DNA from: a virus
Strand: one strand, 5' to 3'
Length of the DNA stretch: 64,000 nucleotides
Virus record (IMG/VR): IMGVR_UViG_3300011113_000664
Span: 32,001-96,000 of that record
Shown here: positions 7,506 to 49,958 of the stretch, piece by piece
Numbering within the stretch: position 1 is the first letter of the stretch
Layout of the letters: each line of letters opens with the position of its first letter
The notes under the pieces: generated by a model
Database searches by the model: none
What the model saw: the letters and a program-made list of their open reading frames with translations, nothing else
Told to the model about the DNA's origin: nothing
Position numbers and translations under genes: made by a program

Positions 7506-7515
7506 AGTATATATT

Positions 7516-7758
7516 TTATTTAAGGGGTTTAAAAGTATCGGTAATAATGAAGTAAGATTTTTTAGAATCGGCAATACCAATAATATTATAATTATTATTC
7601 GATAGATAATCAATAGCGATATCTATTATTGAATTAAATTTATAATCAAAGGGGATTGTAATGGAGTGATTAAATCTTTCAGAGAAGAGTTTAATTTTAG
7701 TACCATCAAAATCGGTTGGTCCGATATATTTTATTTTAATAATATGTAGATTTTGCAT
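7516..7758 (-). CDS. Hypothetical protein
   Basis: IKYIGPTDFDGTKIK; tightly packed operon. Confidence 0.7.
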   Translation of the reverse strand: MQNLHIIKIKYIGPTDFDGTKIKLFSERFNHSITIPFDYKFNSIIDIAIDYLSNNNYNIIGIADSKKSYFIITDTFKPLK

Positions 7759-8525: not shown

Positions 8526-10943
8526 CTACTTTTTTAATTTAACGCAGTTAGGGTATTGTTTACCGAACATTGTTTTCATACCTTTTTGTGTATAACCTTT
8601 CCAACATTTTTCATTTAGAATATCTTTATCTTTCCAATATTTTCTCCAATACATTTTAATAACTGGTATATGAGTAAATCCAAGTTCAAGTGAAGCCAAA
8701 AGTCTATGTCTTCCGCTTATTAATGAATATTCATTATAATAATCAGATTTACCTTGTCTCCAAACAACAACAGGTAATATTGGTTTATTTGCTAACATTG
8801 ATTTTTTAAATCCATCAACAATTTTTCTACCTCGTATTCCTTGTTTATCTATCATTTTTTTAATACCATCAATAAGATTTTTATTGGCTATATCAGAAAT
8901 TAACATTATCTCTGGGTTTTTATAATCACCAAATAAATCTTCATTTTCATCATCAGGTCCTAAAAATTGTTGTTTTTCCCCTTGTGCATCATACAATTCA
9001 TCTTCTAAGTTTTCAGGAGAAACATCTGGCTTATAATGGTTTAAATTTTCATTTAATGTTTTTGGATTACATTCATGGCAAGTATAAGGGTCATCACCAC
9101 CATCTTTTAAATACCATTGATGACCACATTTTTTACATGTGATTATTGTATTATCTAATTCTTCTTTTAATTTTTTTGGTTTATAAATTATATCTAATAA
9201 ACTTTTTTCAATTGAGTTAAGAGAATCAGGGGTATAATTATCTGCTTTAAATTTAATTGATTTGGCTATATCATTTAAAAGGTTTAATTTTTTATATACA
9301 TTTAAATCATCCAATGACAATTGATTTTTTTTAAAGAATGGTAATAAGTTTTTATAATGTTTTTCTATTATGTTTTTATAACCATTATCAATTGCATATA
9401 TAACTTCAGGATAAGACATATTAAAGTTTCCACCATTTCTAATTGCAGCTAGTTTATTTTGGATAATTGGTTTAAGATTTTCACCTTTTTTGGAAAGCAT
9501 TGAAAACTCTGTGTCACTTAGATTTTTATTTTCTTTAGATTTTTTAAGTTGCGATAATTTAAGTATATCTACATTATTATTTTTTAAGAAATAGAATAAA
9601 TCAAACTTTGTTTGGTTATTAAGTTTAATATCTGATAAATATATTTTTTTAATTACTTTTATAAAGTTTTCTTTTGATATAGATTTGGAATTCAAATTAT
9701 CAAAATTATTTAATAAGTAAGAAATCATATTAATTTTTTTATAGTTTTTTATAACTTTATATGTCTTTTCATCATATGCATTTACAAAAAATTGTTCAAA
9801 TTTTTCTATAAATAAATCCAAATGATTTTTAAAATTAACTTCTTTACTAGACAATAAGTATAAAATATCATTACATATATTATTTAATACACTTTTATAA
9901 TTTTTTTGTTGTTGTTCATATGGTTCTCCTTTTATATCATAACGAATACGAATTATTTGTTCATCATAATCAAGAGGTAATTTTTTATCTATGTTTGATA
10001 AATTTTTATGTATCATTTCTCTTGAGTTTATTAAAAAGACTTTATCTTTGATACCTAATTTTTCTAAATATTCAATTGGGTTATTAAAGACTGCATCATA
10101 TCTGTCATGGGATGCCGTTACTTCATTTTTATCATTTAAAGTAAATGCAATCATATTTAAATTTGATGGTATATTTCCATTAAAATTAAAAAAGAAATAT
10201 TGATTATTTTCACCATTTTTTGTATAATTATTAAAAGTTTCCGCATCCCCTACAATACACCATGACTTACTTCCTAATTCATAAGATGCGCTATAATCAA
10301 TTATTCTTGCTAAAATCATATTTTTGTTAGCATAAAGTAATTTAATTGCGTACTTATTCATTTTATTGATAGTATTTAATACATTATCAAAATAGAAACC
10401 TATTTTATGATTTTCAATAAAATATTTTAAATCATAATAAAAACTATCTATATCATTATATTTGTCTGTTTTTCTTAAAAATTCTTTTTGGTCAGTACTT
10501 TGAATATTATTTAGAAAATAATCAATATTATCCATAGTACTATTGTTTGGTAAATTATTTAATAATTCTTTGATAAGTGATTTATTAGTTAACTTGTTTG
10601 TTAATTTTTTTACTAAACGATAATTAGACATATTATCAATATCATCTTTTAATTCATTAAGACTATTATATGATGATATTTGTTTTGGTAATGATTTAAT
10701 TAAATCTTTATTATTAAGAATAAATTCTGCTGTTGATTTAAAATCATTAACTGAACGTGATAATCTTACGATTTCCCCTAAGAAACCAATTGAATTATTT
10801 TTCAATAAATAATTTTTAATATCTAAATAATTAGGATTATCTAAAGGTATATTTTTAGAATTAAGTATTTTTTCAGCTAGTTTTACATCTTCACTTAAAA
10901 TACTAAATTCTTCCTTTATAATTCTTTTAATTAGGTGTAACAT
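8526..10943 (-). CDS. Multi-module putative internal head protein (WC-motif domain, Zn finger, ParB/Srx-like domain, CWKGY module)
   Basis: N-terminal LIKRIIKEE; GSKSWCI; CKKC...CHEC; PVVV...LISGRHRLLA; C-terminal CWKGYTQKGMKTMFGKQYPNCV; start revised from 10970. Confidence 0.65.
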   Translation of the reverse strand: MLHLIKRIIKEEFSILSEDVKLAEKILNSKNIPLDNPNYLDIKNYLLKNNSIGFLGEIVRLSRSVNDFKSTAEFILNNKDLIKSLPKQISSYNSLNELKDDIDNMSNYRLVKKLTNKLTNKSLIKELLNNLPNNSTMDNIDYFLNNIQSTDQKEFLRKTDKYNDIDSFYYDLKYFIENHKIGFYFDNVLNTINKMNKYAIKLLYANKNMILARIIDYSASYELGSKSWCIVGDAETFNNYTKNGENNQYFFFNFNGNIPSNLNMIAFTLNDKNEVTASHDRYDAVFNNPIEYLEKLGIKDKVFLINSREMIHKNLSNIDKKLPLDYDEQIIRIRYDIKGEPYEQQQKNYKSVLNNICNDILYLLSSKEVNFKNHLDLFIEKFEQFFVNAYDEKTYKVIKNYKKINMISYLLNNFDNLNSKSISKENFIKVIKKIYLSDIKLNNQTKFDLFYFLKNNNVDILKLSQLKKSKENKNLSDTEFSMLSKKGENLKPIIQNKLAAIRNGGNFNMSYPEVIYAIDNGYKNIIEKHYKNLLPFFKKNQLSLDDLNVYKKLNLLNDIAKSIKFKADNYTPDSLNSIEKSLLDIIYKPKKLKEELDNTIITCKKCGHQWYLKDGGDDPYTCHECNPKTLNENLNHYKPDVSPENLEDELYDAQGEKQQFLGPDDENEDLFGDYKNPEIMLISDIANKNLIDGIKKMIDKQGIRGRKIVDGFKKSMLANKPILPVVVWRQGKSDYYNEYSLISGRHRLLASLELGFTHIPVIKMYWRKYWKDKDILNEKCWKGYTQKGMKTMFGKQYPNCVKLKK

Positions 10944-16041: not shown

Positions 16042-16180
16042 ATAGTTTTCTTTTAATGTATTTTTTAATACCTAAACATTTAATCACATAGAGTTCAATA
16101 CGAAACCATCTCTTTAACTTAACCGACCAATGCTCTTTTTTCATTTGGTCAAGTATGCTTTGAAATGTTTCGTTTCTCAT
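16031..16180 (-). CDS. Small hypothetical protein
   Basis: Start revised to MRNETF because upstream ATG is inside a tRNA-like gene. Confidence 0.5.
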   Translation of the reverse strand: MRNETFQSILDQMKKEHWSVKLKRWFRIELYVIKCLGIKKYIKRKLYGK

Positions 16181-16183
16181 TTG

Positions 16184-16274
16184 TTGGTAGGATGGGATTT
16201 GAACCCATATCATTGTTGAGCCTCTTTTCTAAAGTTTTTTTGAGTCAACCGCTTCGCCATTCAGCCACCTACCA
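16184..16274 (-). ncRNA. tRNA-like RNA with 25-nt anticodon loop
   Basis: Acceptor TGGTAGG/CCTACCA, D arm GCT/AGC, stem GTTGA/TCAAC, T arm ATGGG-TTCAAAT-CCCAT. Confidence 0.7.
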
Positions 16275-16277
16275 ATT

Positions 16278-16386
16278 TGCTTGTCTTTCCAAGCGGTCAT
16301 CTGTTTTCCCCTATTAGCCCAAATCATCAAAGGGGTATGAAATGGATTTTGTTTGGTGCTTTCGCTTTCCACAGAAAACCAACACA
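16278..16386 (-). ncRNA. Structured intergenic RNA candidate
   Basis: GC-GAAA-GC, CCCCT/AGGGG and GCTTG-GAAAGA-CAAGC hairpins between tRNA-like genes. Confidence 0.45.
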
Positions 16387-16387
16387 G

Positions 16388-16485
16388 TAGCCTCGCTAGG
16401 AATCGAACCTAGAAGAATTGCTTCTCTCTCCATTCCTCAGAATGGAATGAGAAGGCAATCAGTATATCCATTTACTTACAAGGCC
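16388..16485 (-). ncRNA. tRNA-like RNA with anticodon arm extended into a long hairpin
   Basis: Acceptor GGCCTTG/CGAGGCT, D arm AGTA/TACT, T arm CTAGG-TTCGATT-CCTAG; 43-nt arm in anticodon position. Confidence 0.75.
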
Positions 16486-16490
16486 ATTAG

Positions 16491-16574
16491 TATCAGGAGA
16501 GGGAGTCGAACCCTCACGGCATTGCTGCCAATGGATTTTAAGTCCATAGTGTCTACCTATTCCACCATCCCGAC
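16491..16574 (-). tRNA. trnL: tRNA-Leu(UAA), no encoded CCA
   Basis: Full cloverleaf, ATGGA-CTTAAAA-TCCAT, long variable arm, GTTCGA T loop; TATATTTG promoter at 16592-16599. Confidence 0.92.
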
Positions 16575-16637
16575 ATATTGTTTTCACAATTCAAATATAA
16601 GACTTTTTTTTGATTCTAACTATTTAAAGAAAAAAAG

Positions 16638-16979
16638 ATGAAAAAAGTTTTAGTTACTGAATCTCAATTAAGAACAATGGTTCGTAAAATGTTAATGGAA
16701 CAACCTGCAATGGGTGGTACACCTGTTGGTGGTACAGGATTTGCAGGAACTTCAAGTTTAACAACTAATGCTGCTAAACAATCTACCACATTACAATCTC
16801 AAAGAAATAAACAACAACAAACTACGTTATCAAATGTTAAAAACCTTAATCAACTTAACGGTCAGTTTTTAAACTTAATGAATGGTGTTAGTAAAGATAC
16901 ACTTGGTCCTGGAAAAATGACTAAACAAACTTTGATTACTAATTTTGGTAAATTACTTACAGATTTAGGTTATAAGTAA
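16638..16979 (+). CDS. Leader-cargo protein (diverged leader MKKVLVTESQLRTMVRKMLME)
   Basis: Shared leader; late motif ACTATTTAAA 16619-16628. Confidence 0.8.
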   Translation: MKKVLVTESQLRTMVRKMLMEQPAMGGTPVGGTGFAGTSSLTTNAAKQSTTLQSQRNKQQQTTLSNVKNLNQLNGQFLNLMNGVSKDTLGPGKMTKQTLITNFGKLLTDLGYK

Positions 16980-17647
16980 TCAAAACTATGACCATTATGG
17001 ACAAATGGTAGATTTTCCCCATCCTTAACGCAGGATACATTTGCAAATATTGTTTTATATTCTACAAATTTAAATGTACCATTATTTAGATTATCTTGAT
17101 TATCATGGATATGACCAAATATGTGATATTTAGGTTGTATCTTTAATACTCTTTTAAGTAATGCAGAACAACCTACATGTTCACTTACATGTCTATCTCT
17201 TGATGCGGAATCTAATATACCTTTAGGAGGACCGTGTGTAATTAAAATATCAATATCATCAGGTATTGTATCCCAAATTCTTCCAATTTTATTTCTTGCA
17301 CGATTAAATGCCCAATTACAAAACTCAGGAGTATAAGGAGAACCAAATATTTTAATTCCTTCTATCTCAACTAATTCATGTTCAAGATAAATAATATTTC
17401 TATTTTTAAAATCTTCTTTGTTAATGAATCTACTTTCAATAGAAGTATCATGATTACCTGCAATAATCACTTTATATTTAACAGGTTGTTGTTCTAACCA
17501 AATTAAAAATAAATTAACTTCATTATGATTTAATGCAGGACTTTTTACATTTGAAAAATCTCCTGCATGAATAATCATATCCGTACCTTCAGGTATTTGA
17601 ACCTGCTCATGTCTTCCATGAGTGTCTGAGACTGCAAAAATTTTCAT
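16970..17647 (-). CDS. Calcineurin-like metallophosphoesterase
   Basis: SDTH, HAGD, AGNHD, THGPP, FGHIH; leaderless after TATATTTG. Confidence 0.92.
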   Translation of the reverse strand: MKIFAVSDTHGRHEQVQIPEGTDMIIHAGDFSNVKSPALNHNEVNLFLIWLEQQPVKYKVIIAGNHDTSIESRFINKEDFKNRNIIYLEHELVEIEGIKIFGSPYTPEFCNWAFNRARNKIGRIWDTIPDDIDILITHGPPKGILDSASRDRHVSEHVGCSALLKRVLKIQPKYHIFGHIHDNQDNLNNGTFKFVEYKTIFANVSCVKDGENLPFVHNGHSFDYL

Positions 17648-17690
17648 AAAGCAAATATAACTTAACTATTTATAAAAAAATAAAGTTTTC

Positions 17691-17933
17691 ATGAAAAAAG
17701 TAAGAATTACAGAATCTCAATTAAGAGGATTGGTTAGAAGAATGATTAAAGAAGAAAGATATCCAAATATGTGGTATGATAATTTATTAGGTGTAGAAAA
17801 TTTAAATAAATATCCACAAGATTTTATTGATTGGTTAAATCAAGAAGATACTTGGGCTGAGACTTATGTTCAAAAATACAGAATAAAAAAACTTATAGAT
17901 TTATTTGATATGTGGGTTAATGAAAGATATTAA
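17691..17933 (+). CDS. Leader-cargo protein 1
   Basis: MKKVRITESQLRGLVRRMIKEE plus unique cargo; ACTATTTATA at 17665. Confidence 0.85.
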   Translation: MKKVRITESQLRGLVRRMIKEERYPNMWYDNLLGVENLNKYPQDFIDWLNQEDTWAETYVQKYRIKKLIDLFDMWVNERY

Positions 17934-17938
17934 ACCAT

Positions 17939-18001
17939 TTAAAACGGATTACCAATATACTCAACAACTTCATGAGTATCTGAGATTGCAAAGATTTTCA
18001 T
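17939..18001 (-). other. Duplication-junction chimeric mini-ORF MKIFAISDTHEVVEYIGNPF
   Basis: In-frame fusion of phosphoesterase N-terminus and PcfJ-like C-terminus; retains TATATTTG promoter. Confidence 0.8.
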
Positions 18002-18042
18002 AATGCAAATATAAATTAACTATTTATAAAAAAGAAATTTTT

Positions 18043-18627
18043 ATGAAAAAAGTAAGAATTACAGAATCTCAATTAAGAGGATTGGTTAAGAAAATGATTA
18101 AAGAAAATGTAGAAACATCAAGTATACCCACAATAATTAAATATTATAACCAAAGCGATAATAATACACTTAAACAAAAAATATCAAATTATGGTAACTC
18201 AAGATTGCCTGAAAATCCTAATCATAAACAGTTATATGATTTTTTAAATAAAATTGGTGATAAGAATAAATTAGAAATTATAAAAAAGATGTTAGAAAGG
18301 GATATTCAAAAGAAATCTATCACAGAATCTCAATTAAGAGGAATTGTTAAAAGAATGATTAAAGAAGAAATGTCTGAAGAAATATTAACTGAGGGAAATT
18401 GGTCAAAAATTATGAAAGGTGTAAGAAATGGGGAAGCCCCTTTTTCAATTATTGCATTTGAAAATAATTGGCCTAAACCAAAAATTTTAGGTCAAGAAAT
18501 TGGTATTCAAATTATTGATGCAATACCTGCTTATTATGAAGAAATGAAAAGAAAATATCCTAAAGCTAGTAAAATTTCTATTGAAGATGGGGGTGGGCAA
18601 GTTGTTTATGTAGAAAAACTTTATTAA
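18043..18627 (+). CDS. Leader-cargo protein 2 (two leader copies)
   Basis: Leader at N-terminus and internal KKSITESQLRGIVKRMIKEE. Confidence 0.85.
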   Translation: MKKVRITESQLRGLVKKMIKENVETSSIPTIIKYYNQSDNNTLKQKISNYGNSRLPENPNHKQLYDFLNKIGDKNKLEIIKKMLERDIQKKSITESQLRGIVKRMIKEEMSEEILTEGNWSKIMKGVRNGEAPFSIIAFENNWPKPKILGQEIGIQIIDAIPAYYEEMKRKYPKASKISIEDGGGQVVYVEKLY

Positions 18628-18686
18628 AACGGATTATCTAAATACTCAACAACTTCATGAGTATCTGAAATTGCAAAAATTTTCAT
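18624..18686 (-). other. Duplication-junction chimeric mini-ORF MKIFAISDTHEVVEYLDNPF
   Basis: Second copy of the same junction. Confidence 0.8.
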
Positions 18687-18729
18687 AATGCAAATATAAC
18701 TTAACTATTTATAAAAAAATAAATTTAAT

Positions 18730-19389
18730 ATGAAAAAAGTAAGAATTACAGAATCCCAATTAAAAGGATTGATTAGAAGAATGATTAAAGAAGAAACTAA
18801 AAAAAACTTAATAAGTGAAGTTTATTTTAGTGATACTGATAGAGCATATATAGGTAGAACTGATGCTTATTATTCAGATGAAGACGATGAATCGGTATAT
18901 TCACCTGATTATTGGACATATTCAACTGATATGAATGATAGTGATTTTGCACAAGATGGTGACCTTTATCAATTAAGTAATGCTGGTAAAGAAATTATTA
19001 ATTCTTGGTTGGAATATAAAGGGTACAATGAATACCAAAGAATGAACGCTAGAAGGAGTGGTGCATCTAATCCTATTATGAGTATGAGTAATGAACAATT
19101 GTGGGATTATTTAACAACAGACAGAAGATATTCAAAGCAACTTAGAAAGGGATATATTGGAGAAGAAATGGAAATGTCTCAAAAGCCTGAAAAATTTATG
19201 AGTTTAAAAATAAAAGGTAATAAAATTATGGCTCACGAACCTTATTTTGGAAAAGATACATGGGTTGCAAGCATATATCATGACCAAAAAAGAATTAAAC
19301 CTACTCATGGTTATTTCATGCCTCATAAATATGGCAAAATGAGTAAAAAATATGCCGATAGTATTGGTTATGAATTTGACAATAGTTAA
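18730..19389 (+). CDS. Leader-cargo protein 3
   Basis: MKKVRITESQLKGLIRRMIKEE plus unique cargo; ACTATTTATA at 18704. Confidence 0.85.
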   Translation: MKKVRITESQLKGLIRRMIKEETKKNLISEVYFSDTDRAYIGRTDAYYSDEDDESVYSPDYWTYSTDMNDSDFAQDGDLYQLSNAGKEIINSWLEYKGYNEYQRMNARRSGASNPIMSMSNEQLWDYLTTDRRYSKQLRKGYIGEEMEMSQKPEKFMSLKIKGNKIMAHEPYFGKDTWVASIYHDQKRIKPTHGYFMPHKYGKMSKKYADSIGYEFDNS

Positions 19390-19391
19390 TT

Positions 19392-20780
19392 CTAAAACGG
19401 ATTATCTAAATACTCAACAACTTCATAGTTATGTTCACCAAAAGGGTCATTTGTTGACCCTTTTATTTTGCTTATATATTTCTTTTCTTTTTTATTTACC
19501 TCATTTATAGCATCCTGCAACTTAGTCATAAGTTCATTTGGTACACTTGAGTTAGCATAACCTTTGAATTGGTTTATTCTATAAATTTCTTTATTATAAT
19601 CATCAAGCCAATTATATTTACCAAAACTTATTTCAGCAGTATATCTTTTTTCATTATACTCTGTTGTTAAGATACAACAATCGCCTCTATTGATATTATC
19701 TGAATAGGAGTTAACGCAATGCTTTTGAGTAAGTCCTTCAAATAAAAGGTCTTTACCATCTTTAATCATTTTAAATTCTTTTGGTAAATACTTTTCCAAG
19801 ATAAGATATTTATCATCAACATGGATTTCTTTTACTTTCATTTTATCAAGATTTTCCAATAAGATTCTATCATGTTGTTCTTTGATATTATCTTTATTCA
19901 AAGAGAAGTTAATCTTTTGACCAACATCATTTGCCATCTTGATTAAATCATCAAAATATGTTTGATAATCAGTAGTTTTCTTTGCTATGTTTTTATATTC
20001 TAAAAATTTATCAACATAATTGATTGGGTTTTTAAATATAGGTGCAACTGACATTATCTCATAGATATCATCAAAGGATAAACCTGCAAATTGTTTATGT
20101 GATAATGGTTCATCAATTGTTTTAATTTTATTAATAAACTGTTGAAGACTTGAGCAAGAACCATATGATGATTTGGAAAAGTTATTTTGAGAAGTTAATG
20201 CTGTATTATTTCTTGCTTTTTTTCTTTCCAAATGATTTTCACACCACTCATTCTTTTTATTATTAAAAAGAAGTTTTTTACTTAAATTAATAATATCATT
20301 ATTTATATTGATACCAAAATAATTAAAAGGGAATTTTTTAATATTTGATAATGAAAGCCATACTGCTTTATTCGATGTTGGTAGATTAAATTTTATTGCA
20401 CCACTTGGTGAAATAAATACAAATGAAACATTCTTTTTGCTAGGATAGCAGAGATATTCATAACCTTGTTTTCTCATTTGAAGATGTTCACCTGCAAAAG
20501 AAAGTCTTTTCATTTTAAACTGTGTTATAGTTAAAATAATTGAATATCCCTTTTCAGTTACATTGCAAAATGCACTATAAAAAATATTATGAGTATTATC
20601 TTCACCAATCTTTAAATATTTTTTATAATTATTATATCTTAACTCATACTTATTAGTTTCATCAATAATAGTTACATCATCATTAATCGCATTTGTATTT
20701 GCTTCTTTAGCAAAATTATACATGCGACCATAGAGTTCAAAAGCAAGGTCTGAAATTGGAAAACGAAGGTTATTGTTCAT
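19392..20780 (-). CDS. PcfJ-like domain protein
   Basis: LLFEGLTQKHCVNSY, YTAEI, INQFKGYANSSVP; start revised to MNNN, downstream of TATCTTTG promoter. Confidence 0.75.
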   Translation of the reverse strand: MNNNLRFPISDLAFELYGRMYNFAKEANTNAINDDVTIIDETNKYELRYNNYKKYLKIGEDNTHNIFYSAFCNVTEKGYSIILTITQFKMKRLSFAGEHLQMRKQGYEYLCYPSKKNVSFVFISPSGAIKFNLPTSNKAVWLSLSNIKKFPFNYFGININNDIINLSKKLLFNNKKNEWCENHLERKKARNNTALTSQNNFSKSSYGSCSSLQQFINKIKTIDEPLSHKQFAGLSFDDIYEIMSVAPIFKNPINYVDKFLEYKNIAKKTTDYQTYFDDLIKMANDVGQKINFSLNKDNIKEQHDRILLENLDKMKVKEIHVDDKYLILEKYLPKEFKMIKDGKDLLFEGLTQKHCVNSYSDNINRGDCCILTTEYNEKRYTAEISFGKYNWLDDYNKEIYRINQFKGYANSSVPNELMTKLQDAINEVNKKEKKYISKIKGSTNDPFGEHNYEVVEYLDNPF

Positions 20781-20846
20781 AGGATTTTTAAGTTTATGCA
20801 AAGATAAAAAAAGCCTCTGAAATTTTCAAAGGCTTTGTAAAAAAAA

Positions 20847-22532: not shown

Positions 22533-22883
22533 TTAGTTCATAATATTTTCTTTAAAATTTAAAAAACTATTATACAAGTCATTGGTTGTATATTTTTTTA
22601 AGATTTTATATGGTTTTCTTTTGTCGATTTCAATCAATTCAGATACTGACCAAGGATTTGGTATATTAGGTTTGCCTTGTTTATTAAATTCTAAAAAACA
22701 ACTAAAGATAATTGGTTTTTCTGATAAATATGTAAAATGAAATTGTCTTGGTCCAACTTGTTTAAAAGACCAATCTTGTTCTTGGTCTACAATTTGTTTA
22801 ATTTTTCTAACATCTTGTATTGCATCATATGTTGTATATTCCAATTCTTCTTTAATTATTTTTTTTATAATTGATTTAATCAT
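22533..22883 (-). CDS. Late protein with IIKKIIKEE leader
   Basis: MIKSIIKKIIKEELE; late motif CTATTTACA upstream. Confidence 0.7.
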   Translation of the reverse strand: MIKSIIKKIIKEELEYTTYDAIQDVRKIKQIVDQEQDWSFKQVGPRQFHFTYLSEKPIIFSCFLEFNKQGKPNIPNPWSVSELIEIDKRKPYKILKKYTTNDLYNSFLNFKENIMN

Positions 22884-41003: not shown

Positions 41004-42782
41004 ATGACCAAACATGAACTAATGATGGAGTATGCCAAGTGCGCTATTGATATAGAGTACTTTGCAAAAAAATATTGTAAAGTTTGGGATAAGAAAAAAC
41101 AACAGTTTGTACCTTTTCAATTATTACCACAACAAATTCAAGTATTAGAAACTTACAAAGAAAGTAATAGAGTATTGGTTGCTAAATATCGTCAAGGTGG
41201 TATTACAACTGTAACTTGTTTATATTTAGCACATTCAATTGTTTTCAGAAAAGATATTAAAGTTGGTGTTGCTGCTAACAAATTAAAACTTGCAAAGGAA
41301 AGTATCTTTTATCAAATAGCATCTATTATTAATAATTTACCAAGAGAAATATTTAATAGAATACCAACTGATTCAGATACAAAAGAAATCAAGATTTATA
41401 ACAATGGTGCAACACTACAGGCTTTCGCAGCATCTGCCGATGGTCTTCGTGGTTTTACACCTGATATATTATTTATAGATGAAGCTGCGTTCCTTGAAGA
41501 AGGTGAAGAATTTATGTCTTCTGCATCAGGTACAATGTCAGCAGGTGGTCAGATTATATTAAACTCCACACCAAGAGGTCTTGACCCAACATATTATGCT
41601 CGTTATGAAGGAGCAAGAACAAAGAAAAATAACTTTAAAGTTGTTGAAATTAATTGGTTTGAAGACCCTCGTTATAATGAAGATTTAATTTGGATTAGGG
41701 GTGATGAATTTGTTGAGGAAAAAGACCCTGAAAAATATATGCAATTAAGAGTTAATGGTTATAGACCATCATCTTCTTGGTTTAGAGATATGTGTCAAAC
41801 ATTCAATAATGACCCAAGAAAAATTGCACAGGAATTAGAAAATAAATTCTTAGGTTCAGGTGGTAACCTTGTTGATGAGGAAACCATTATGAGAATTGAA
41901 AAGACTTGTAAAGAACCAATCAAAACAGAGTTTGATAATCACTTTTGGATTTGGGAAGAACCGATATTTGGTTATGATTATTATTTAGCTTGTGATGTTG
42001 CAAAAGGTAGTGGCGATGGTGACTACTCTACAATTCAAATATTTAAAAATGACATGGCAAACATGTTACTTGTTCAAGTTGCTGAATATCAATCAAGAGT
42101 ACCGCTTGAAGTAATGGGTGAATTATGTTTACAATATGGTGAAAAATATAATAATGCTTATGTGATTGTCGATGTTACAGGAGGTTGGGGTATATCTGTT
42201 ATTAGATATTTGGTAAATAAAAAATATAAAAAAATACATTACGATAGGCCAAGACAAAATGATGTAAAGATTCAATTAAAAAATTTACAAAGAGGTGAAT
42301 TACAACCGGGATTCACAATGAAAAATGGTGCTATTCGTGATTATGTTATTAGAGAATTTGAAAGAAGATTAAGAGAAGGTGAAGCATTAATTCATTCAAT
42401 AAGATTACTTAGTGAAATTAAAACATTTGTATTTAATGACAACACAAATAGATATGACCACATGCGTTCAGCACATGATGACTTATTAATTGCAACAGGA
42501 ATGTTATTTGCTGTTTATATGTTTTCTAAAACAATTGGAAATGAATTTAATATTTATTTGAATTATGCAAAGTCAGCAATTGTAAGGAAGGGTGATGAAT
42601 TTACAGATGCAAATGCAGAGTTTCAAAAGAAAATGCTAAGTCAAGATGGACAAGATGTAAATTATGAAAGAAAGAATGATATGATAAAGGGTAAGGATTG
42701 GTATACAAATGGTAACAGCATAGATGTACCTGAACGTCAAACACCAAAAATAAATAATAACCCTTACATATTTGTTAGATAA
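41004..42782 (+). CDS. terL: Terminase large subunit (T4 gp17-like)
   Basis: KYRQGGITT Walker A, ILFIDEAAF Walker B, NSTP, CDVAKGSGDGDYS, HDDL. Confidence 0.95.
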   Translation: MTKHELMMEYAKCAIDIEYFAKKYCKVWDKKKQQFVPFQLLPQQIQVLETYKESNRVLVAKYRQGGITTVTCLYLAHSIVFRKDIKVGVAANKLKLAKESIFYQIASIINNLPREIFNRIPTDSDTKEIKIYNNGATLQAFAASADGLRGFTPDILFIDEAAFLEEGEEFMSSASGTMSAGGQIILNSTPRGLDPTYYARYEGARTKKNNFKVVEINWFEDPRYNEDLIWIRGDEFVEEKDPEKYMQLRVNGYRPSSSWFRDMCQTFNNDPRKIAQELENKFLGSGGNLVDEETIMRIEKTCKEPIKTEFDNHFWIWEEPIFGYDYYLACDVAKGSGDGDYSTIQIFKNDMANMLLVQVAEYQSRVPLEVMGELCLQYGEKYNNAYVIVDVTGGWGISVIRYLVNKKYKKIHYDRPRQNDVKIQLKNLQRGELQPGFTMKNGAIRDYVIREFERRLREGEALIHSIRLLSEIKTFVFNDNTNRYDHMRSAHDDLLIATGMLFAVYMFSKTIGNEFNIYLNYAKSAIVRKGDEFTDANAEFQKKMLSQDGQDVNYERKNDMIKGKDWYTNGNSIDVPERQTPKINNNPYIFVR

Positions 42783-44665: not shown

Positions 44666-45430
44666 ATGGTAAATTTTGGTAATGTCAAGTCAAAATTAAA
44701 TAAAGCTTATTCTCAAGATTTAATTGAAAATACAAGTAATTATAAAAAACTGTATGAAGAGTTTTTAAAAACAATTAAATCATCCACTGTTCTAATGTTA
44801 GAATATACAATTTATGAGAATTTAAAAAAACATAATCTTGAATACAATGAATCACTAAGATTCATTGAAGCTAATATTTCTGCTTTATCTAAAATTGACA
44901 AAACTGAATTACTAAAAGAAAATAAAAAACTTGAAAAGTTTGATTTAAAAGAAATAGAATTATCAGAAGATAAAATTCAATTAAATCAAAACATTGAAAA
45001 TGTTATTAATGAAAGTGTGTTTAAAAAAATAACCAATGTTAATAAACTTCATGAATCTGTAAATTTTTTAATTGAATCATTAACAAAAAAAGATGAAACA
45101 AAATTAGAAAAGACAGATAAAGGATTTAAGGTTAGTCATATTTTTCATTTAGCTAAAAAGAAATTAGAAGAGAAATTTTCAAATCTTCAACCTGATGAAA
45201 TGGAAATTATTTCAACTTTTATTAAAGGTGATGAAAAAAAGAAAAAAACAGTTTTTGAAAATTATAAAAAGACAACAAAGAATTTTCTTCTAAATGAAAA
45301 AGATAATATTAGTTCAGAGGTATTAACCGAAACATTTGATTTTATTGATACTTTGGAATATGATTCTGAAACAGCTATTAATAACTTGTCCAAACTTTTT
45401 GAGATTAAAAATCTAAACTCAAACAAATAA
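44666..45430 (+). CDS. Head-region hypothetical protein
   Basis: Between portal and protease; late motif at 44641. Confidence 0.8.
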   Translation: MVNFGNVKSKLNKAYSQDLIENTSNYKKLYEEFLKTIKSSTVLMLEYTIYENLKKHNLEYNESLRFIEANISALSKIDKTELLKENKKLEKFDLKEIELSEDKIQLNQNIENVINESVFKKITNVNKLHESVNFLIESLTKKDETKLEKTDKGFKVSHIFHLAKKKLEEKFSNLQPDEMEIISTFIKGDEKKKKTVFENYKKTTKNFLLNEKDNISSEVLTETFDFIDTLEYDSETAINNLSKLFEIKNLNSNK

Positions 45431-46131
45431 TGAAAGAAATACAACTACTAAAAGAAGGACAGGAAGGATATGGTTTATTAGTAGAAACTGATGCAGGTAT
45501 TATTAGTAATGATTTAACCATAAATAATAAAAAAATATTTGAAGATTTAAATTCAAAATATAGAAGAAATGATTTTGATGGTCATTTCTATATTGATTGT
45601 AAACTTCAGGAAGCTGATGTGTTAAATCGTAATGGAAGAGTGTATCCAAGAGAAATATTAGCAAAACAAATAGATGAATATCAAAAACTTATTAATGATT
45701 ATGCAGCACTTAATGAGGCTGACCATCCCGAAAGTGTCACCATTTCTTTACAGAATATATCTCACAGAATCGCAAAAACTTGGTGGTCAGGTAATGCTGT
45801 TTTTGGAACTCTTGATATTATCGTTAGCGATTCATTCATGAGAGATGGTATTGGTTGGACAATTGGTGATAAAATTGCTCTTTACTTGCAAAGAAATCTT
45901 AAACTTGGTATTTCTTCAAGAGGATTGGGTAGTGTTAAAAAAGTAGGTGGAAAAAATATTGTTCAAAATGATTTTGAACTTATTTGTTTTGACTTAGTAG
46001 CGACACCATCTACACCTAATGCTTATTTATTTTTGGAAACAAAAAATGATACTTTAAAAGAATCTGTAGAAATACAAAACAATAATGTAAAAAAATATGA
46101 TGATTCAATAAGAAAAATAATTGGTGGTTAA
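45430..46131 (+). CDS. Prohead protease (T4 gp21-like)
   Basis: NRNGRVYP, DHP, SH, GISSRGLGS, FDLVATPST. Confidence 0.93.
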   Translation: MKEIQLLKEGQEGYGLLVETDAGIISNDLTINNKKIFEDLNSKYRRNDFDGHFYIDCKLQEADVLNRNGRVYPREILAKQIDEYQKLINDYAALNEADHPESVTISLQNISHRIAKTWWSGNAVFGTLDIIVSDSFMRDGIGWTIGDKIALYLQRNLKLGISSRGLGSVKKVGGKNIVQNDFELICFDLVATPSTPNAYLFLETKNDTLKESVEIQNNNVKKYDDSIRKIIGG

Positions 46132-46166: not shown

Positions 46167-48140
46167 ATGAATAATAAAAAATCTTTATTACAAGATAGTT
46201 TGCAAGAACTAGAAAATATCAAGAATGAATCTTTGGAACTTGCCAAAGAACAATTGATTAATGAAAGTGCTGACTTGTTAGAAAAAAAATCTGCTGAATT
46301 ATTTGAAAAACTAATTGCAGGTGAAGATGTAGAAGAAGAAAGCAAAGAAGAAGAAAAGGAAGAGGACAAAGAAGAGGACAAATCATTAAATGAAATATTA
46401 AATGAACTTAAAGATTTCTCAGATGAAGAAGATGAGGATGAAATGTCTGATGATGAGGATGAAATGGAAGATTCAGAAGATGAAGAAGAAATGTCATTAG
46501 ATGCTTTAAGAAAAGCAGCAGAAGAACAAGGTTTTAAATTAGTTCAAGCCGATTCTGATGAAGAAGATATGGAATCAGATGAAGAAGATATGGAAGATTC
46601 GGAAGATGAAGAAGAAATGGAGGATTCGGATGATGAAGAAGACATTGAATTTAATGATGAAGAATCGGATGATGAATTTTCTGATGTTGATGTTGATGAT
46701 AAAGTCTTAGCTGAACCAAGTGATGAGGAAGAAGAGAAAGAAGAAAGCTTTCAAAAAATAAATGAAAATTTTAAAAGAAATAATACTAAAATGAGAAATA
46801 CAAAAAAACAAGTTTTAAAAGATTTAAGAGATGTAAGCTTTAATAAATTGGTTGAAGCATATTACAACATGGGGGATAATGATTCTTTCATTATTAAAGA
46901 AAATGAATATATAGATGAAGATTTATATGAAGGTGACCCAAATGATAAATATGATGATTATGCACCAGACCCTGATTCTGAATATGAAAGAAGATTTGAA
47001 ATTGATTCAGATATGGATGAAACTGAGCCTTATGATGATGAAGAAATGGATGATGAAGAAATGGATGATGATATAATATATGAAATTGATATGCCTGAAG
47101 GTAGGTATGACATGGAATCAATGTCTGATGAAGGTTATGAAATGACTGATGAAGATATTAATGAAATGCTTGCTGAAATGGGTATAGATGAAGATGTACC
47201 TTCTAGAGAGCAAGGTTCTGCTTATCGTACTCAAGAAAAACATAGACATTTTAAAGGCGATATTCATAACTATCATGATGAACTTGAAGAATCTATTGCT
47301 ACTAGAACAAGAGATAAATTTGTTAAACAAGGTCTTGGTGGTCATACTTCTGCTGAAAAAACTGAACTTGAAGAAATGTTTGAAGAAATGTCAATGGAAG
47401 AATTGATGGAAATGGAAAGAATGCTTCAAGAAGATGGGGATGGTGCTGAAGAAGGGTTTGAATCAGGTCAAGATGGACAAGGTGGTGCTGCTATGTCTAA
47501 ACATGCTAGATTTAAAAAAGATTATATGGATAAGCAAGATTTAACCGAAGCTGAAATTGAAGAAATATTATCATCAATGAAAGAAGAGGAAGATATAGAA
47601 GAAGGTATGTCTTTAAGACGTTCTCAAGCTAATAAACATCAAGCACCTAGTCCTAGAAATAGAGAAGAAAGAATCAGACCATTAGCTGAAGAAGATATGG
47701 AAGAAGTTGAATCTTTAAGAGAACAACTTAAAAAACTTAAAGCTGAAAATAAATCCTTGAATGAAGGTTTTACAAATAAAGTTAAATCATTAGAGAATAA
47801 AGTCTATGATGTAACGATTAGTGCATTAAAAGCAGGATTTGTAAACAAGTTTTTACTTGAGCATCCTTTAAGAGAGAATGAAAAATTACAAATCATTCAT
47901 CGCTTTGCAAATGCACAAACTAAAGAGCAAATTAAAGAAACTTATATTTCATTAACAAATGAGTTTGCAAAAGGGCAAACAGTTAAAGATGGTTCAATGT
48001 TGAATGAATCAGTACAAAATAAAGTTGGTAAAGTTCATAGAACTGACAATGTAGTTGTCACGGAAAAGAACTTGATGAACGAAAATGATGAAACTAATAG
48101 GTTTAAACAATTACTTAACTATAATTTTGGTAGGAAATAA
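46167..48140 (+). CDS. Prohead scaffold/core protein
   Basis: Extremely acidic, coiled-coil C-terminus, between protease and capsid, ends RFKQLL. Confidence 0.8.
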   Translation: MNNKKSLLQDSLQELENIKNESLELAKEQLINESADLLEKKSAELFEKLIAGEDVEEESKEEEKEEDKEEDKSLNEILNELKDFSDEEDEDEMSDDEDEMEDSEDEEEMSLDALRKAAEEQGFKLVQADSDEEDMESDEEDMEDSEDEEEMEDSDDEEDIEFNDEESDDEFSDVDVDDKVLAEPSDEEEEKEESFQKINENFKRNNTKMRNTKKQVLKDLRDVSFNKLVEAYYNMGDNDSFIIKENEYIDEDLYEGDPNDKYDDYAPDPDSEYERRFEIDSDMDETEPYDDEEMDDEEMDDDIIYEIDMPEGRYDMESMSDEGYEMTDEDINEMLAEMGIDEDVPSREQGSAYRTQEKHRHFKGDIHNYHDELEESIATRTRDKFVKQGLGGHTSAEKTELEEMFEEMSMEELMEMERMLQEDGDGAEEGFESGQDGQGGAAMSKHARFKKDYMDKQDLTEAEIEEILSSMKEEEDIEEGMSLRRSQANKHQAPSPRNREERIRPLAEEDMEEVESLREQLKKLKAENKSLNEGFTNKVKSLENKVYDVTISALKAGFVNKFLLEHPLRENEKLQIIHRFANAQTKEQIKETYISLTNEFAKGQTVKDGSMLNESVQNKVGKVHRTDNVVVTEKNLMNENDETNRFKQLLNYNFGRK

Positions 48141-48194: not shown

Positions 48195-49958
48195 ATGTAC
48201 GGAATTACCGAAATCCTTAACTCTGGAAAAGTTGGTCAAGAATACCGCCAACTTAGAGAACAGCGTGAATTGATTACCGAAAAGTGGAATCAGTTCGGCT
48301 TGCTTGATGGCCTTGAAGGTCACATGGCTGAAAACATTGCTCAATTGTATGAGAACCAAGCTTCTTATCTCATTAACGAATCTACTGATGCTACATCTTC
48401 AGGTTCTTTTGAGACAGTTGCGTTCCCAATCATCAGACGTGTTTTCCAAAAATTACTTGCAAACGAAATCGTATCAGTTCAGGCTATGAACATGCCGATT
48501 GGTCGTTTGTATTTCATTAACCCTAAAATCTCTGTTAGAACTAACAATGCACATTCTCCATTTGATGGTGTATTTAATAATGCTGCTAACAACTATAACC
48601 CTGCAAACCATGCAACAAGTCCATACACCAAAACAGGTGGTACAACTTTTCAAACTACTTCTCTTTACGATTCTTTCTATAACACAGGAAGTTCTTTAGA
48701 TGATGATGGTGGTCTTTTTGATAGAACTAAGGGTACGATTTATACAAATAGTCCTACTTTACAAGTAATGGCAGGTTCTATTCTTTCAGGTTCGGTTGCT
48801 TCTAGAGTAACAACTAGATTAACCGGTTTTACTACTACTAACGAAGGTAAATTACAAGGACCTGTTGGACTTCCAGTTGATACTGAGTCTTTTTTAATGG
48901 GTCTTAAAGTTACTTGTAATCAAACTTTGATTGCAAGAGTTGGTGATACTAGTTATAATATTAATGCAGGTGATTCTATTCCATTTAGAGTACCAATGCA
49001 AGCATATGGTAAAGAATTAGTGGCTAAAGGTACTAATTATATTACTCTTGAGCTTTTATTAGATGGTCCTAGTTCAGCAGGTGTTTATGGTGTAAGTCCA
49101 AGTACTGCAACTACAGGTGGCTATTCTGCTTCTACTGGTCCATTAGCATTTACTGCTACTTATAGAATATATTCTCCTATGGAAGAAGATGCTAATATTC
49201 CTCAAGTAACATTTACTTTCGATTATATTGATGTATCTGTTGAGAAAAGAATGTTAGGTGCTACCTTTACACCTGAACTTCAGCAAGATGTTAATGCTTT
49301 CCACTCAATTGATGTTGAAGCTGAATTAACTGCTCTTCTTTCTGAGGTTGTATCAGGTGAAATTGACCGTGAAATTCTTCGTGACCTTCGTAAATCTGCT
49401 TCCCATGTTGAATTCTTCGATTGGGGTGGTTATGACAGAAGAATTACTTCAGGTGGTCTTGCACTTACTCGCAAAGATTATAACCAAGATTTGATTACTA
49501 AGATTAACCAAATCTCTGCTAAAATCATGAAATTCACTCTTCGTGGTGGTGCTAACTGGGTTGTATGTTCTCCTGAAGTTGCTGCAATCTTTAATGACCT
49601 TGAGTACTTCCATGCTTCTGATGCTTCTGCTGAAGAAACTAAGTTCTCTTTAGGTATTGAGAAAGTTGGTAATGTAGCTAACAGATACACAGTATATGTT
49701 GATGCTTATGCTCCTGCTGGTGTTGTTCTTGTAGGACACAAAGGAGATTCAATCTTCCATGCAGGTTACATCTACGCTCCATATGTACCGTTGATGCTTA
49801 TGCCTAAAACCATTAACCCTGCTGATTTCAAACCTGTAATGGGTATCATGACTCGTTATGCTAAGAAGGTTGTTAACAACAGGTTCTATGGTAAAGTAAT
49901 GGTTCAGGGTCTTCCTGTTGCTTCTCCTAACGAATTCATGTTAGATACAATTTCCTAA
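48195..49958 (+). CDS. Major capsid protein (T4 gp23-like)
   Basis: KW..GLLDGL, LYENQ, AFPIIRRVF, VSVQAMNMPIG, ELQQD, YAPYVPL, GIMTRY. Confidence 0.96.
   Translation: MYGITEILNSGKVGQEYRQLREQRELITEKWNQFGLLDGLEGHMAENIAQLYENQASYLINESTDATSSGSFETVAFPIIRRVFQKLLANEIVSVQAMNMPIGRLYFINPKISVRTNNAHSPFDGVFNNAANNYNPANHATSPYTKTGGTTFQTTSLYDSFYNTGSSLDDDGGLFDRTKGTIYTNSPTLQVMAGSILSGSVASRVTTRLTGFTTTNEGKLQGPVGLPVDTESFLMGLKVTCNQTLIARVGDTSYNINAGDSIPFRVPMQAYGKELVAKGTNYITLELLLDGPSSAGVYGVSPSTATTGGYSASTGPLAFTATYRIYSPMEEDANIPQVTFTFDYIDVSVEKRMLGATFTPELQQDVNAFHSIDVEAELTALLSEVVSGEIDREILRDLRKSASHVEFFDWGGYDRRITSGGLALTRKDYNQDLITKINQISAKIMKFTLRGGANWVVCSPEVAAIFNDLEYFHASDASAEETKFSLGIEKVGNVANRYTVYVDAYAPAGVVLVGHKGDSIFHAGYIYAPYVPLMLMPKTINPADFKPVMGIMTRYAKKVVNNRFYGKVMVQGLPVASPNEFMLDTIS

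Follow-up and report, generated by a model that had tools for sequence, protein, structure and literature searches.

Four small genes of an uncultured T4-like phage carry the same leader of 21-22 residues in front of otherwise unrelated sequences. We read this leader, with a probability of roughly 0.55, as a capsid-targeting propeptide that would act in the style of T4, while being non-homologous to the T4 tag, longer, and used in addition as a joint between protein modules. An earlier note on this DNA had proposed a plug-in system that packages and injects exchangeable effectors. Part of this proposal stands, since the late-type motif, the protease, the I/L/V-x-E leader end, about 60 cargo families and a variable locus all speak for it. 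As far as sequence can tell, these findings cover every testable feature of the T4 capsid-targeting model, namely timing motif, protease, leader end, cargo diversity and locus variation. On the other hand, the proposal is weakened by cargos without recognisable function, by the internal position of 22 of 98 leaders, and by the lack of similarity to T-even tags.

The four genes lie on the plus strand of the window, the 64,000-nt stretch of viral DNA analysed here, and run against their neighbours, which are encoded on the minus strand. The first (16638-16979, 113 aa) has a diverged leader at 16638-16703 and a basic, low-complexity cargo rich in Q, T and N, which represents the best conserved cargo family among relatives. 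It is followed by a divergently transcribed gene for a calcineurin-like metallophosphoesterase (16970-17647, minus strand; PF00149), which forms the left flank of the array. The second leader gene (17691-17933, 80 aa) has its leader at 17691-17756, and the homologues of its cargo carry other leaders. The third (18043-18627, 194 aa) is composed of a leader (18043-18108), a cargo a, a second, internal leader (18304-18369) and a cargo b. The fourth (18730-19389, 219 aa) joins a leader at 18730-18795 to an acidic cargo. A PcfJ-like gene (19392-20801, minus strand) closes the array on the right, and its final 34 nt are repeated after each cassette. The junctions at 17940-18002 and 18625-18687 (both minus strand) hold chimeric mini-ORFs identical in kind; the first of them, of 20 codons, fuses a leftover piece of the PcfJ-like gene (3' end) with one of the phosphoesterase gene (5' end). 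These scars are a visible record of array growth.

Each leader gene is preceded by a late-type 9-nt motif on the plus strand (16620-16628, 17666-17674, 18020-18028 and 18705-18713). The genome contains 32 such sites, and an ORF begins within 40 nt downstream at 26 of them (81%), compared with 15% for 40 permuted motifs of matched composition. The late promoter suggested by the earlier note is thus borne out as a common motif, which stands ahead of the genes for portal and capsid protein, of several large genes presumed to be structural and of all four leader genes. The motif was not found upstream of the flanking metallophosphoesterase and PcfJ-like genes, and none of nine internal leaders has it.

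Within the 170-kb genome, five leader copies match the leader profile with E values of 1e-13 to 1e-16, and the next best match among the 2043 six-frame ORFs has an E value of 0.014. Two further genes had been proposed as relatives of the leader. One encodes 116 aa (22533-22883, minus strand), is preceded by a late motif with one mismatch and is loosely related at best; the other encodes 805 aa (8526-10943, minus strand), and its start is more likely the ATG at 10943. Both do have a hydrophobic-hydrophobic-K-E-E run of the I-I-K-E-E type near the N-terminus, but their profile E values (1.6 and 56, respectively) are not significant.

As the earlier note had suggested, the leader profile was used to catalogue cargos, and it recovered 80 leader-bearing proteins among the 1.84 billion proteins searched. 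The catalogue comprises 98 unique leader instances, of which 91 are full-length. The leader is N-terminal in 76 of the 98 and internal in 22, so that the tag is not solely an N-terminal address; some internal leaders stand in tandem or after a large N-terminal domain. Glu8, Ser9 and Glu21 do not vary in any of the 91 full-length instances, and the T-E-S-Q-L core is invariant too. Only I, L or V occurs at position 19, and I/L/V-x-E closes the leader in 91/91, a low-information motif that the catalogue profile itself contains, though Glu21 is only one of its 22 positions. The homologues of the 17691 cargo provide a sample that avoids this bias, because they were gathered by their cargo and not by their leader. 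Their diverged leaders all keep I/M-x-E, followed by a linker of variable length. We count the leader end in favour of the propeptide reading, since it fits the L/I-X-E cleavage rule of gp21 (PMC9026906). The leader has a charge of about +3.5. The idea that it forms an amphipathic helix was dropped because its hydrophobic moment is no higher than in shuffled sequences.

The genome also encodes a T4-type head module, which includes a PF07230 portal. A protein of 254 residues is encoded at 44666-45430. The earlier note was right in identifying a gp21-like protease: the gene at 45430-46131 (plus strand) encodes a Peptidase_S77 protein (PF03420, 81.6 bits) whose catalytic His and Ser align to those of T4 gp21 (5JBL). 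Between the protease and capsid genes lies a gene for a scaffold-like protein of 657 residues with a charge of about -128 (46167-48140, plus strand), and the gp23-type major capsid protein follows at 48195-49958 (plus strand; PF07068). The scaffold-like protein has L-I-N-E-S near residue 30 and the capsid protein has it at residues 59-63, in the delta region, where the earlier note had pointed to an INE site at about residue 62 and where I-N-E occupies residues 60-62. Both are predicted maturation sites, and the invariant I-T-E-S core of the leader shares their form; the pattern [IL]-x-E-S is uncommon (0.10 per 100 residues). Moreover, each of the five leader-bearing contigs that reach 23 kb encodes PF03420, and in G003 the gene for a cargo homologue is located upstream of those for the protease and gp23, at a distance of 7 kb.

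The cargos are highly diverse. The 107 cargo modules of the catalogue, of about 60-200 residues, fall into some 60 unrelated clusters, 40% of the cargos are acidic, and the cargo parts of the window genes have no significant BLASTP similarity. A given module may stand alone or behind an internal leader, in differing fusions. When the four window proteins, ten long proteins of the catalogue and its full set of 95 members were searched against Pfam and PHROGs, all matches to functions stayed below threshold (ParB-like nuclease, ExoX C-terminal and WYL), and the ESM Atlas held nothing of use for the protein of 219 residues. For the leader with cargo b, the AF2 model consists of a helix, a stretch of pLDDT below 50 at residues 22-28, right after the leader, and then a confident alpha/beta domain. 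Foldseek found no PDB match to this model at E 0.001 or better, and its best BFVD match was an uncharacterised protein of Virus NIOZ-UU157. A likeness of cargo b to the Rubisco small subunit was discarded, as the best VIA Z score (7.8) does not rise above background. For the 80-residue protein, AF2 gave a poor model (pLDDT 61).

A single constant helix with many variable domains, placed behind a late-type motif, would also suit a docking or assembly tag on another late structure, such as the capsid surface, the neck or the whiskers, with cargos that are displayed rather than packaged and injected. We regard this as unlikely. The invariant Glu21 with I/L/V at P3, like the I-T-E-S core, agrees with the predicted protease sites, and leaders located between modules are better explained by cutting than by docking. 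In addition, fold comparisons on the AF2 model of cargo b revealed no Ig-like, lectin or fibre fold.

The locus varies between relatives. The genome G000, the relatives G001 and G002, and metagenome contigs hold differing cargos between conserved, near-identical phosphoesterase and PcfJ-like flanks. Leader genes adjoin the PcfJ-like gene in ten contigs and the phosphoesterase gene in eight. This linkage makes the two flanking proteins the candidates for a modifying or processing enzyme, or a non-capsid partner, that would recognise the leader as its tag, and the invariance of the T-E-S-Q-L core exceeds what a cut site alone would need. Nevertheless, all these contigs are syntenic relatives, so the linkage may reflect shared ancestry only. 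Leader-like genes away from the array (9059 and 10681 of the genome, and 47644 of G001) and the cargo homologue of G003 have no phosphoesterase or PcfJ-like neighbours, and the flanking genes lack the late motif. Hence, we consider an enzyme tag improbable, more so than docking. A radical-SAM enzyme was also considered as a partner, and no radical-SAM gene was found in the 170 kb.

No deposited phage carries the leader, and only the phosphoesterase gene was matched when 50,697 phage records were searched by blastn and tblastn. The two-leader protein gave no relevant tblastn match at E values up to 10 in the same records, so that no similarity between the leader and the T-even targeting tag was detected in a set among which T-even phages are presumed, not confirmed, to be included. 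The nearest relatives by capsid protein, about 38-43% identical, are Flavobacterium phage immuto, Microcystis phage Mel-JY01 and the uncultured LR756508. Neither the phage records nor the genome contigs contained the context of one cargo homologue from a 215-kb contig (P0007).

At the DNA level, three leader copies are 88-95% identical to one another and 65-82% identical to the other two, and identity drops to 21-39%, which is background, over the 66 nt that follow; near-identical leaders with complete divergence right behind them had been reported in the earlier note. The promoter region and the leader are repeated jointly, at 87-90% identity over about 158 nt, together with the junction scars. 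Codon differences among the copies are 381 non-synonymous and 141 synonymous, with replacements mostly between K and R and among I, L, V and M; such counting was set aside as insufficient alone to prove purifying selection. The joint repeat, the near-identity of three copies and the excess of non-synonymous differences would all suit a segment made of promoter and gene start, as in PeSL elements, that serves a mobile cassette solely for recombination and expression, with gene conversion keeping it uniform and no role for the peptide, but we find this the least probable of the alternatives, given that internal leaders lack the promoter, that the 16638-type leader keeps its peptide at 65-76% DNA identity with one Arg encoded by two unrelated codons, that the invariant residues hold across 98 distinct instances with conservative replacements, and that diverged leaders on cargo homologues retain the x-E end.

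Under the capsid-targeting propeptide that we favour, the leader genes would be switched on alongside the head genes, and the basic leader would carry its cargo into the prohead's acidic scaffolding core. Cleavage by the gp21-family protease would then occur behind Glu21 (I/L/V-x-E) and, probably, behind Glu8 as well (I-T-E, before S). In T4, an Asp at the cleavage site prevents processing yet leaves targeting intact. The freed cargo would remain in the head, exit with the DNA at infection and might act as an effector. A leader unit between modules would serve as a cut joint, and tandem cassettes could therefore fuse into polyproteins or split while keeping the address. In this genome, the array would have arisen through tandem duplication of a promoter-leader-cargo unit. 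Recombination between co-infecting relatives would exchange the cargos, the leader providing homology on the left and the end of the PcfJ-like gene on the right. Internal and tandem leaders count against a T4-type tag, as this use is not known of T4 targeting tags. In a broader version, which we put forward tentatively and hold as clearly less probable than the propeptide itself, the leader would be both address and joint, directing prohead loading when N-terminal and forming a protease-cut seam when internal. Cassettes could then fuse, split and swap and all be delivered, in a freshwater T4-like clade whose injected repertoire would be a combinatorial library of 60 or more effector families, with counter-defence proteins probably making up many of them.

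In T4, proteins of the capsid-carried, injected class have proved to act as specific inhibitors of host restriction. If our reading is true, the leader is a one-line search key for capsid-carried, injected proteins of abundant uncultured freshwater T4-like phages, and its catalogue supplies about 60 candidate effector families. The loading principle of T4 would have been invented anew, or re-coded in another peptide, by phages remote from those of enterobacteria, and extended to polyproteins. The leader would also be a natural candidate tag for loading foreign proteins into such phages and, should it have the dual use described above, could serve, as it stands, to tag proteins for packaging in phages that infect hosts of the Bacteroidota type. 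The junction scars show how such an array grows.

Several known systems resemble this one in part. The cargo-loading peptides of encapsulins are likewise short conserved peptides that send diverse cargos inside an HK97-fold shell. They differ in being usually C-terminal and not removed by a protease, and they bind the shell protein itself, with neither DNA nor ejection involved. The mobile PeSL cassettes of the hyperplastic regions of T4-type phages (PMC2839356, PMC4122927) similarly place a repeated regulatory sequence beside novel small ORFs and offer homology for shuffling among related phages. However, PeSL is a non-coding early promoter with a stem-loop, whereas the repeat described here combines a late-type motif with a translated leader, which is also present without any promoter. 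In phiKZ, 201phi2-1 and SPN3US, head, inner-body and ejection proteins have propeptides cut by gp21-like proteases at S/A-x-E (PMC9026906, PMC7411985). As proposed here, many head-internal proteins are cut after Glu by a diverged gp21 homologue, and a propeptide may hold several sites. Unlike our leader, those propeptides are not one constant sequence on exchangeable cargos, have Ser or Ala at P3 and form no cassette array.

The closest parallel is found in the T-even phages, from which the principle of loading the capsid by a short leader is known. Their IPI, IPII, IPIII and Alt proteins and the products of the polymorphic ip loci bear a capsid targeting sequence that is processed by gp21 (PMC9026906, PMC3012670, PMC12373910; Repoila et al. 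1994, as cited there), and among the internal proteins this N-terminal leader, which directs packaging, is the sole common part (PMC12373910, PMC3012670). The present system, known from sequence alone, shares with them a short N-terminal leader that ends in hydrophobic-x-Glu on otherwise unrelated small proteins, a genome that encodes an acidic scaffold together with a protease of the gp21 family and the gp23 capsid protein, a locus that varies between close relatives, and cargos of about 60-200 residues. Its cargos are often acidic, whereas the classic internal proteins are basic. Its leader has 21-22 residues, compared with 10-19 in T4 (the IPIII tag, at 10, is about half as long), shows no sequence similarity to the T4 tags and has two predicted protease-type sites. 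Finally, the leader described here is also an internal joint in two- and three-module proteins, and it belongs to an array built by tandem duplication, with junction scars that can still be seen.

We found that four genes of the window (16638-16979, 17691-17933, 18043-18627 and 18730-19389, all on the plus strand) start with a common 22-residue leader, in a region between 12000 and 22900 where the minus strand carries most genes. The window spans bases 32001-96000 of the viral record, which comprises 170,056 bp with 27.7% G+C and whose completeness is estimated at about half. A second leader copy lies inside the 18043 gene (18304-18369, plus strand). With a profile built from these copies, all five score E 1e-13 to 1e-16, and no match better than E 0.014 was found in the rest of the genome. 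Three leader copies are 88-95% identical in their DNA, and identity to the other two is 65-82%; over the next 66 nt it falls to 21-39%, the background level for such composition, and the cargo peptides of the window were mutually unrelated by BLASTP. Therefore, the sharing of a leader by unrelated cargos is real and far beyond chance. These results substantiate an earlier note, which had described four genes running against the local strand, near-identical leader DNA in three of them, complete divergence thereafter and one internal leader. The related leaders it assigned to the genes at 22533 and 8526 amount to a likeness of five residues only; a short segment like the start of these genes immediately precedes true leaders in some relatives. 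The product of the 8526-10943 gene (minus strand) has 805 residues and an I-I-K-E-E type start, and its C-terminal ParB-like matches are weak, below curated cut-offs. In addition, a G+C-richer patch (16165-16600) immediately ahead of the first leader gene contains tRNA-Leu(UAA) at 16490-16574 (minus strand) together with further tRNA-like sequence.

The leader module is widespread. As the earlier note had proposed, a leader profile was used to catalogue cargos: word-based and full HMMER searches of 1.84 billion representatives yielded 80 proteins with E values of 0.001 or less. The leader begins at residue 1 in most of them, and it is internal or present in two to three copies in about twenty. 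Among the 91 unique leaders of full length, Glu8, Ser9 and Glu21 are invariant, Leu11 has one exception, only Ile, Leu or Val occupies position 19, and positions 12, 16, 17 and, less strictly, 20 are mostly Lys/Arg. Splitting the proteins at their leaders gave 107 cargo modules (median 94 residues) in about 60 clusters without mutual similarity. Combinations vary, and modules that stand alone in one protein recur behind internal leaders in others. The two-leader protein P0037 (438 residues) also has a sub-threshold ParB-like nuclease match, below curated cut-offs. In the relative G002, a 454-residue protein (L002:1891-3255) bears a mid-chain I-I-K-E-E type segment followed directly by a true leader, with a third similar joint farther along; similar proteins form a family (P0084, P0088, P0097, P0103 and P0106).

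The 17691 cargo allows a test free of this bias, as its homologues were collected through the cargo and not the leader. Their leaders are strongly diverged, and all have Ile/Met-x-Glu ahead of a variable-length linker; beyond the start Met, this Glu is the sole invariant column of the leader region. In the more distant T4-like phage G003, a 350-residue protein ends in a 17691-type cargo module, and its gene lies 7 kb upstream of the genes for the protease and gp23. Several proteins encoded nearby, close to these head genes, have their own, different N-terminal segment in common, which ends in an invariant Glu (L006:5724-5813, 7510-7599 and 9122-9211). This suggests the existence of lineage-specific leader versions.

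The leader genes share with head genes a 9-nt motif that has A or T at position 8 (one copy lies at 18020-18028). At 26 of its 32 genomic sites an ORF of 45 codons or more begins within 40 nt, as compared with 15% for 40 permutations with unchanged composition. The motif precedes the genes for the portal, a 254-residue head protein, the capsid protein and proteins of 1308, 919 and 1572 residues, as well as all four leader genes. From the identity of these genes we infer that it marks late genes; for the late promoters claimed in the earlier note, what stands is this common motif, late timing being read from the portal and capsid genes. Two genes with loosely leader-like starts about 22 kb before the window (genome 9059-9727 and 10681-10991; profile E 0.59 and 0.014) also lie behind it. 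A leader acting as a docking tag for another late structure is an unlikely alternative, albeit the strongest one.

We favor, with a probability of about 0.55, a capsid-targeting propeptide of the T4 type. T4 internal proteins enter the scaffolding core by means of propeptides of 10-19 residues, which are removed afterwards, gp21 cleaving after Glu in L/I-X-E (PMC9026906); such a targeting leader is the only part common to T-even internal proteins (PMC12373910, PMC3012670). The window encodes a large terminase (41004-42782), a T4-type portal (PF07230), the 254-residue protein, placed as T4 gp67/68, a Peptidase_S77 protease (45430-46131; PF03420), an extremely acidic 657-residue scaffold-like protein (46167-48140) and a gp23-type capsid protein (48195-49958; PF07068), whose nearest cultured relatives are only 38-43% identical. 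The gp21-like protease and the capsid INE site of the earlier note are both present. Aligned with T4 gp21 (5JBL), the protease conserves the catalytic Ser and has His at the catalytic-His position, and an S77 protease is encoded in each of the five contigs with the leader that are 23 kb or longer. Capsid residues 59-63 read L-I-N-E-S, just upstream of the stretch aligning with mature T4 gp23, and the same five residues recur near the scaffold N-terminus, both runs being predicted maturation sites. Further M/L-x-N-E sites lie in the C-terminal region of the scaffold, and a short N-terminal segment of the protease ends in L-K-E-G, a possible self-processing site as discussed for T4 gp21.

Ile19-x-Glu21 of the leader conforms to the gp21 rule, a motif of low information content, and the invariant core Ile6-Thr7-Glu8-Ser9 has the form of the sites predicted in capsid and scaffold; in the proteome, [IL]-x-E-S occurs only 0.10 times per 100 residues. 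We therefore propose that the leader might be cut twice, after Glu21 and at the core, which would also destroy it. The leader is basic (about +3.5), the scaffold carries about -128, and the leader helix is not notably amphipathic. Internal leaders may serve as cut joints between modules. An AF2 model of the internal leader and the second cargo of the 18043 gene (mean pLDDT 81) has a helix followed by a confident alpha/beta domain; between them, immediately behind the leader, pLDDT drops below 50 at residues 22-28. A 901-residue CCA-enzyme fusion of the same genome has L-N-E type sites without the leader, and protease-type motifs described earlier at its joints fit the cut-joint idea. The cargos had no assignable function or known fold in family and structure searches.

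It is rather improbable that the leader is recognized by an enzyme or partner that has nothing to do with the capsid: no radical-SAM enzyme was found in the 170 kb of the record, and synteny confounds the linkage with the two flanking genes. A recombination handle acting purely at the DNA level is less probable still, given internal copies without a promoter and a peptide conserved where leader DNA diverged, although codon-level differences are by themselves no proof of purifying selection.

The number and kind of leader genes between the flanking calcineurin-like phosphoesterase (16970-17647, minus strand) and PcfJ-like (19392-20801, minus strand) genes differ among the relatives G001, G002 and G004 and several metagenome contigs that have the same flanks. 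In this genome, 34 nt from the 3' end of the PcfJ-like gene recur behind each cassette and abut a copy of the first ten phosphoesterase codons. Two chimeric 20-codon mini-ORFs (17940-18002 and 18625-18687, minus strand), which join these ten codons to the last PcfJ-like ones, are most simply by-products of duplication rather than real genes. Together with repeated units 87-90% identical over about 158 nt, these scars bear the signature of tandem duplication of a segment from the phosphoesterase gene interior to the PcfJ-like gene interior. Cargos may then have been replaced, or the array may stem from unequal crossing-over between phages with differing cargos. In another phage (metagenome contig Ga0129333_10000533, 1476-5460), a three-leader gene and two single-leader genes form a tighter array, spaced by only 18-38 nt and free of junction scars; therefore, there is more than one route to such arrays.

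The principle has been textbook knowledge since 1994: in T-even phages, a polymorphic locus encodes variable cargos that are injected and bear a constant leader. Unlike in T-even systems, the leader described here is longer, unrelated in sequence and doubles as an internal joint, and the phages that carry it belong to a distant, uncultured, AT-rich T4-like clade. What is new is the leader itself, its use as a joint, a repertoire of about 60 cargo clusters and readable duplication scars.
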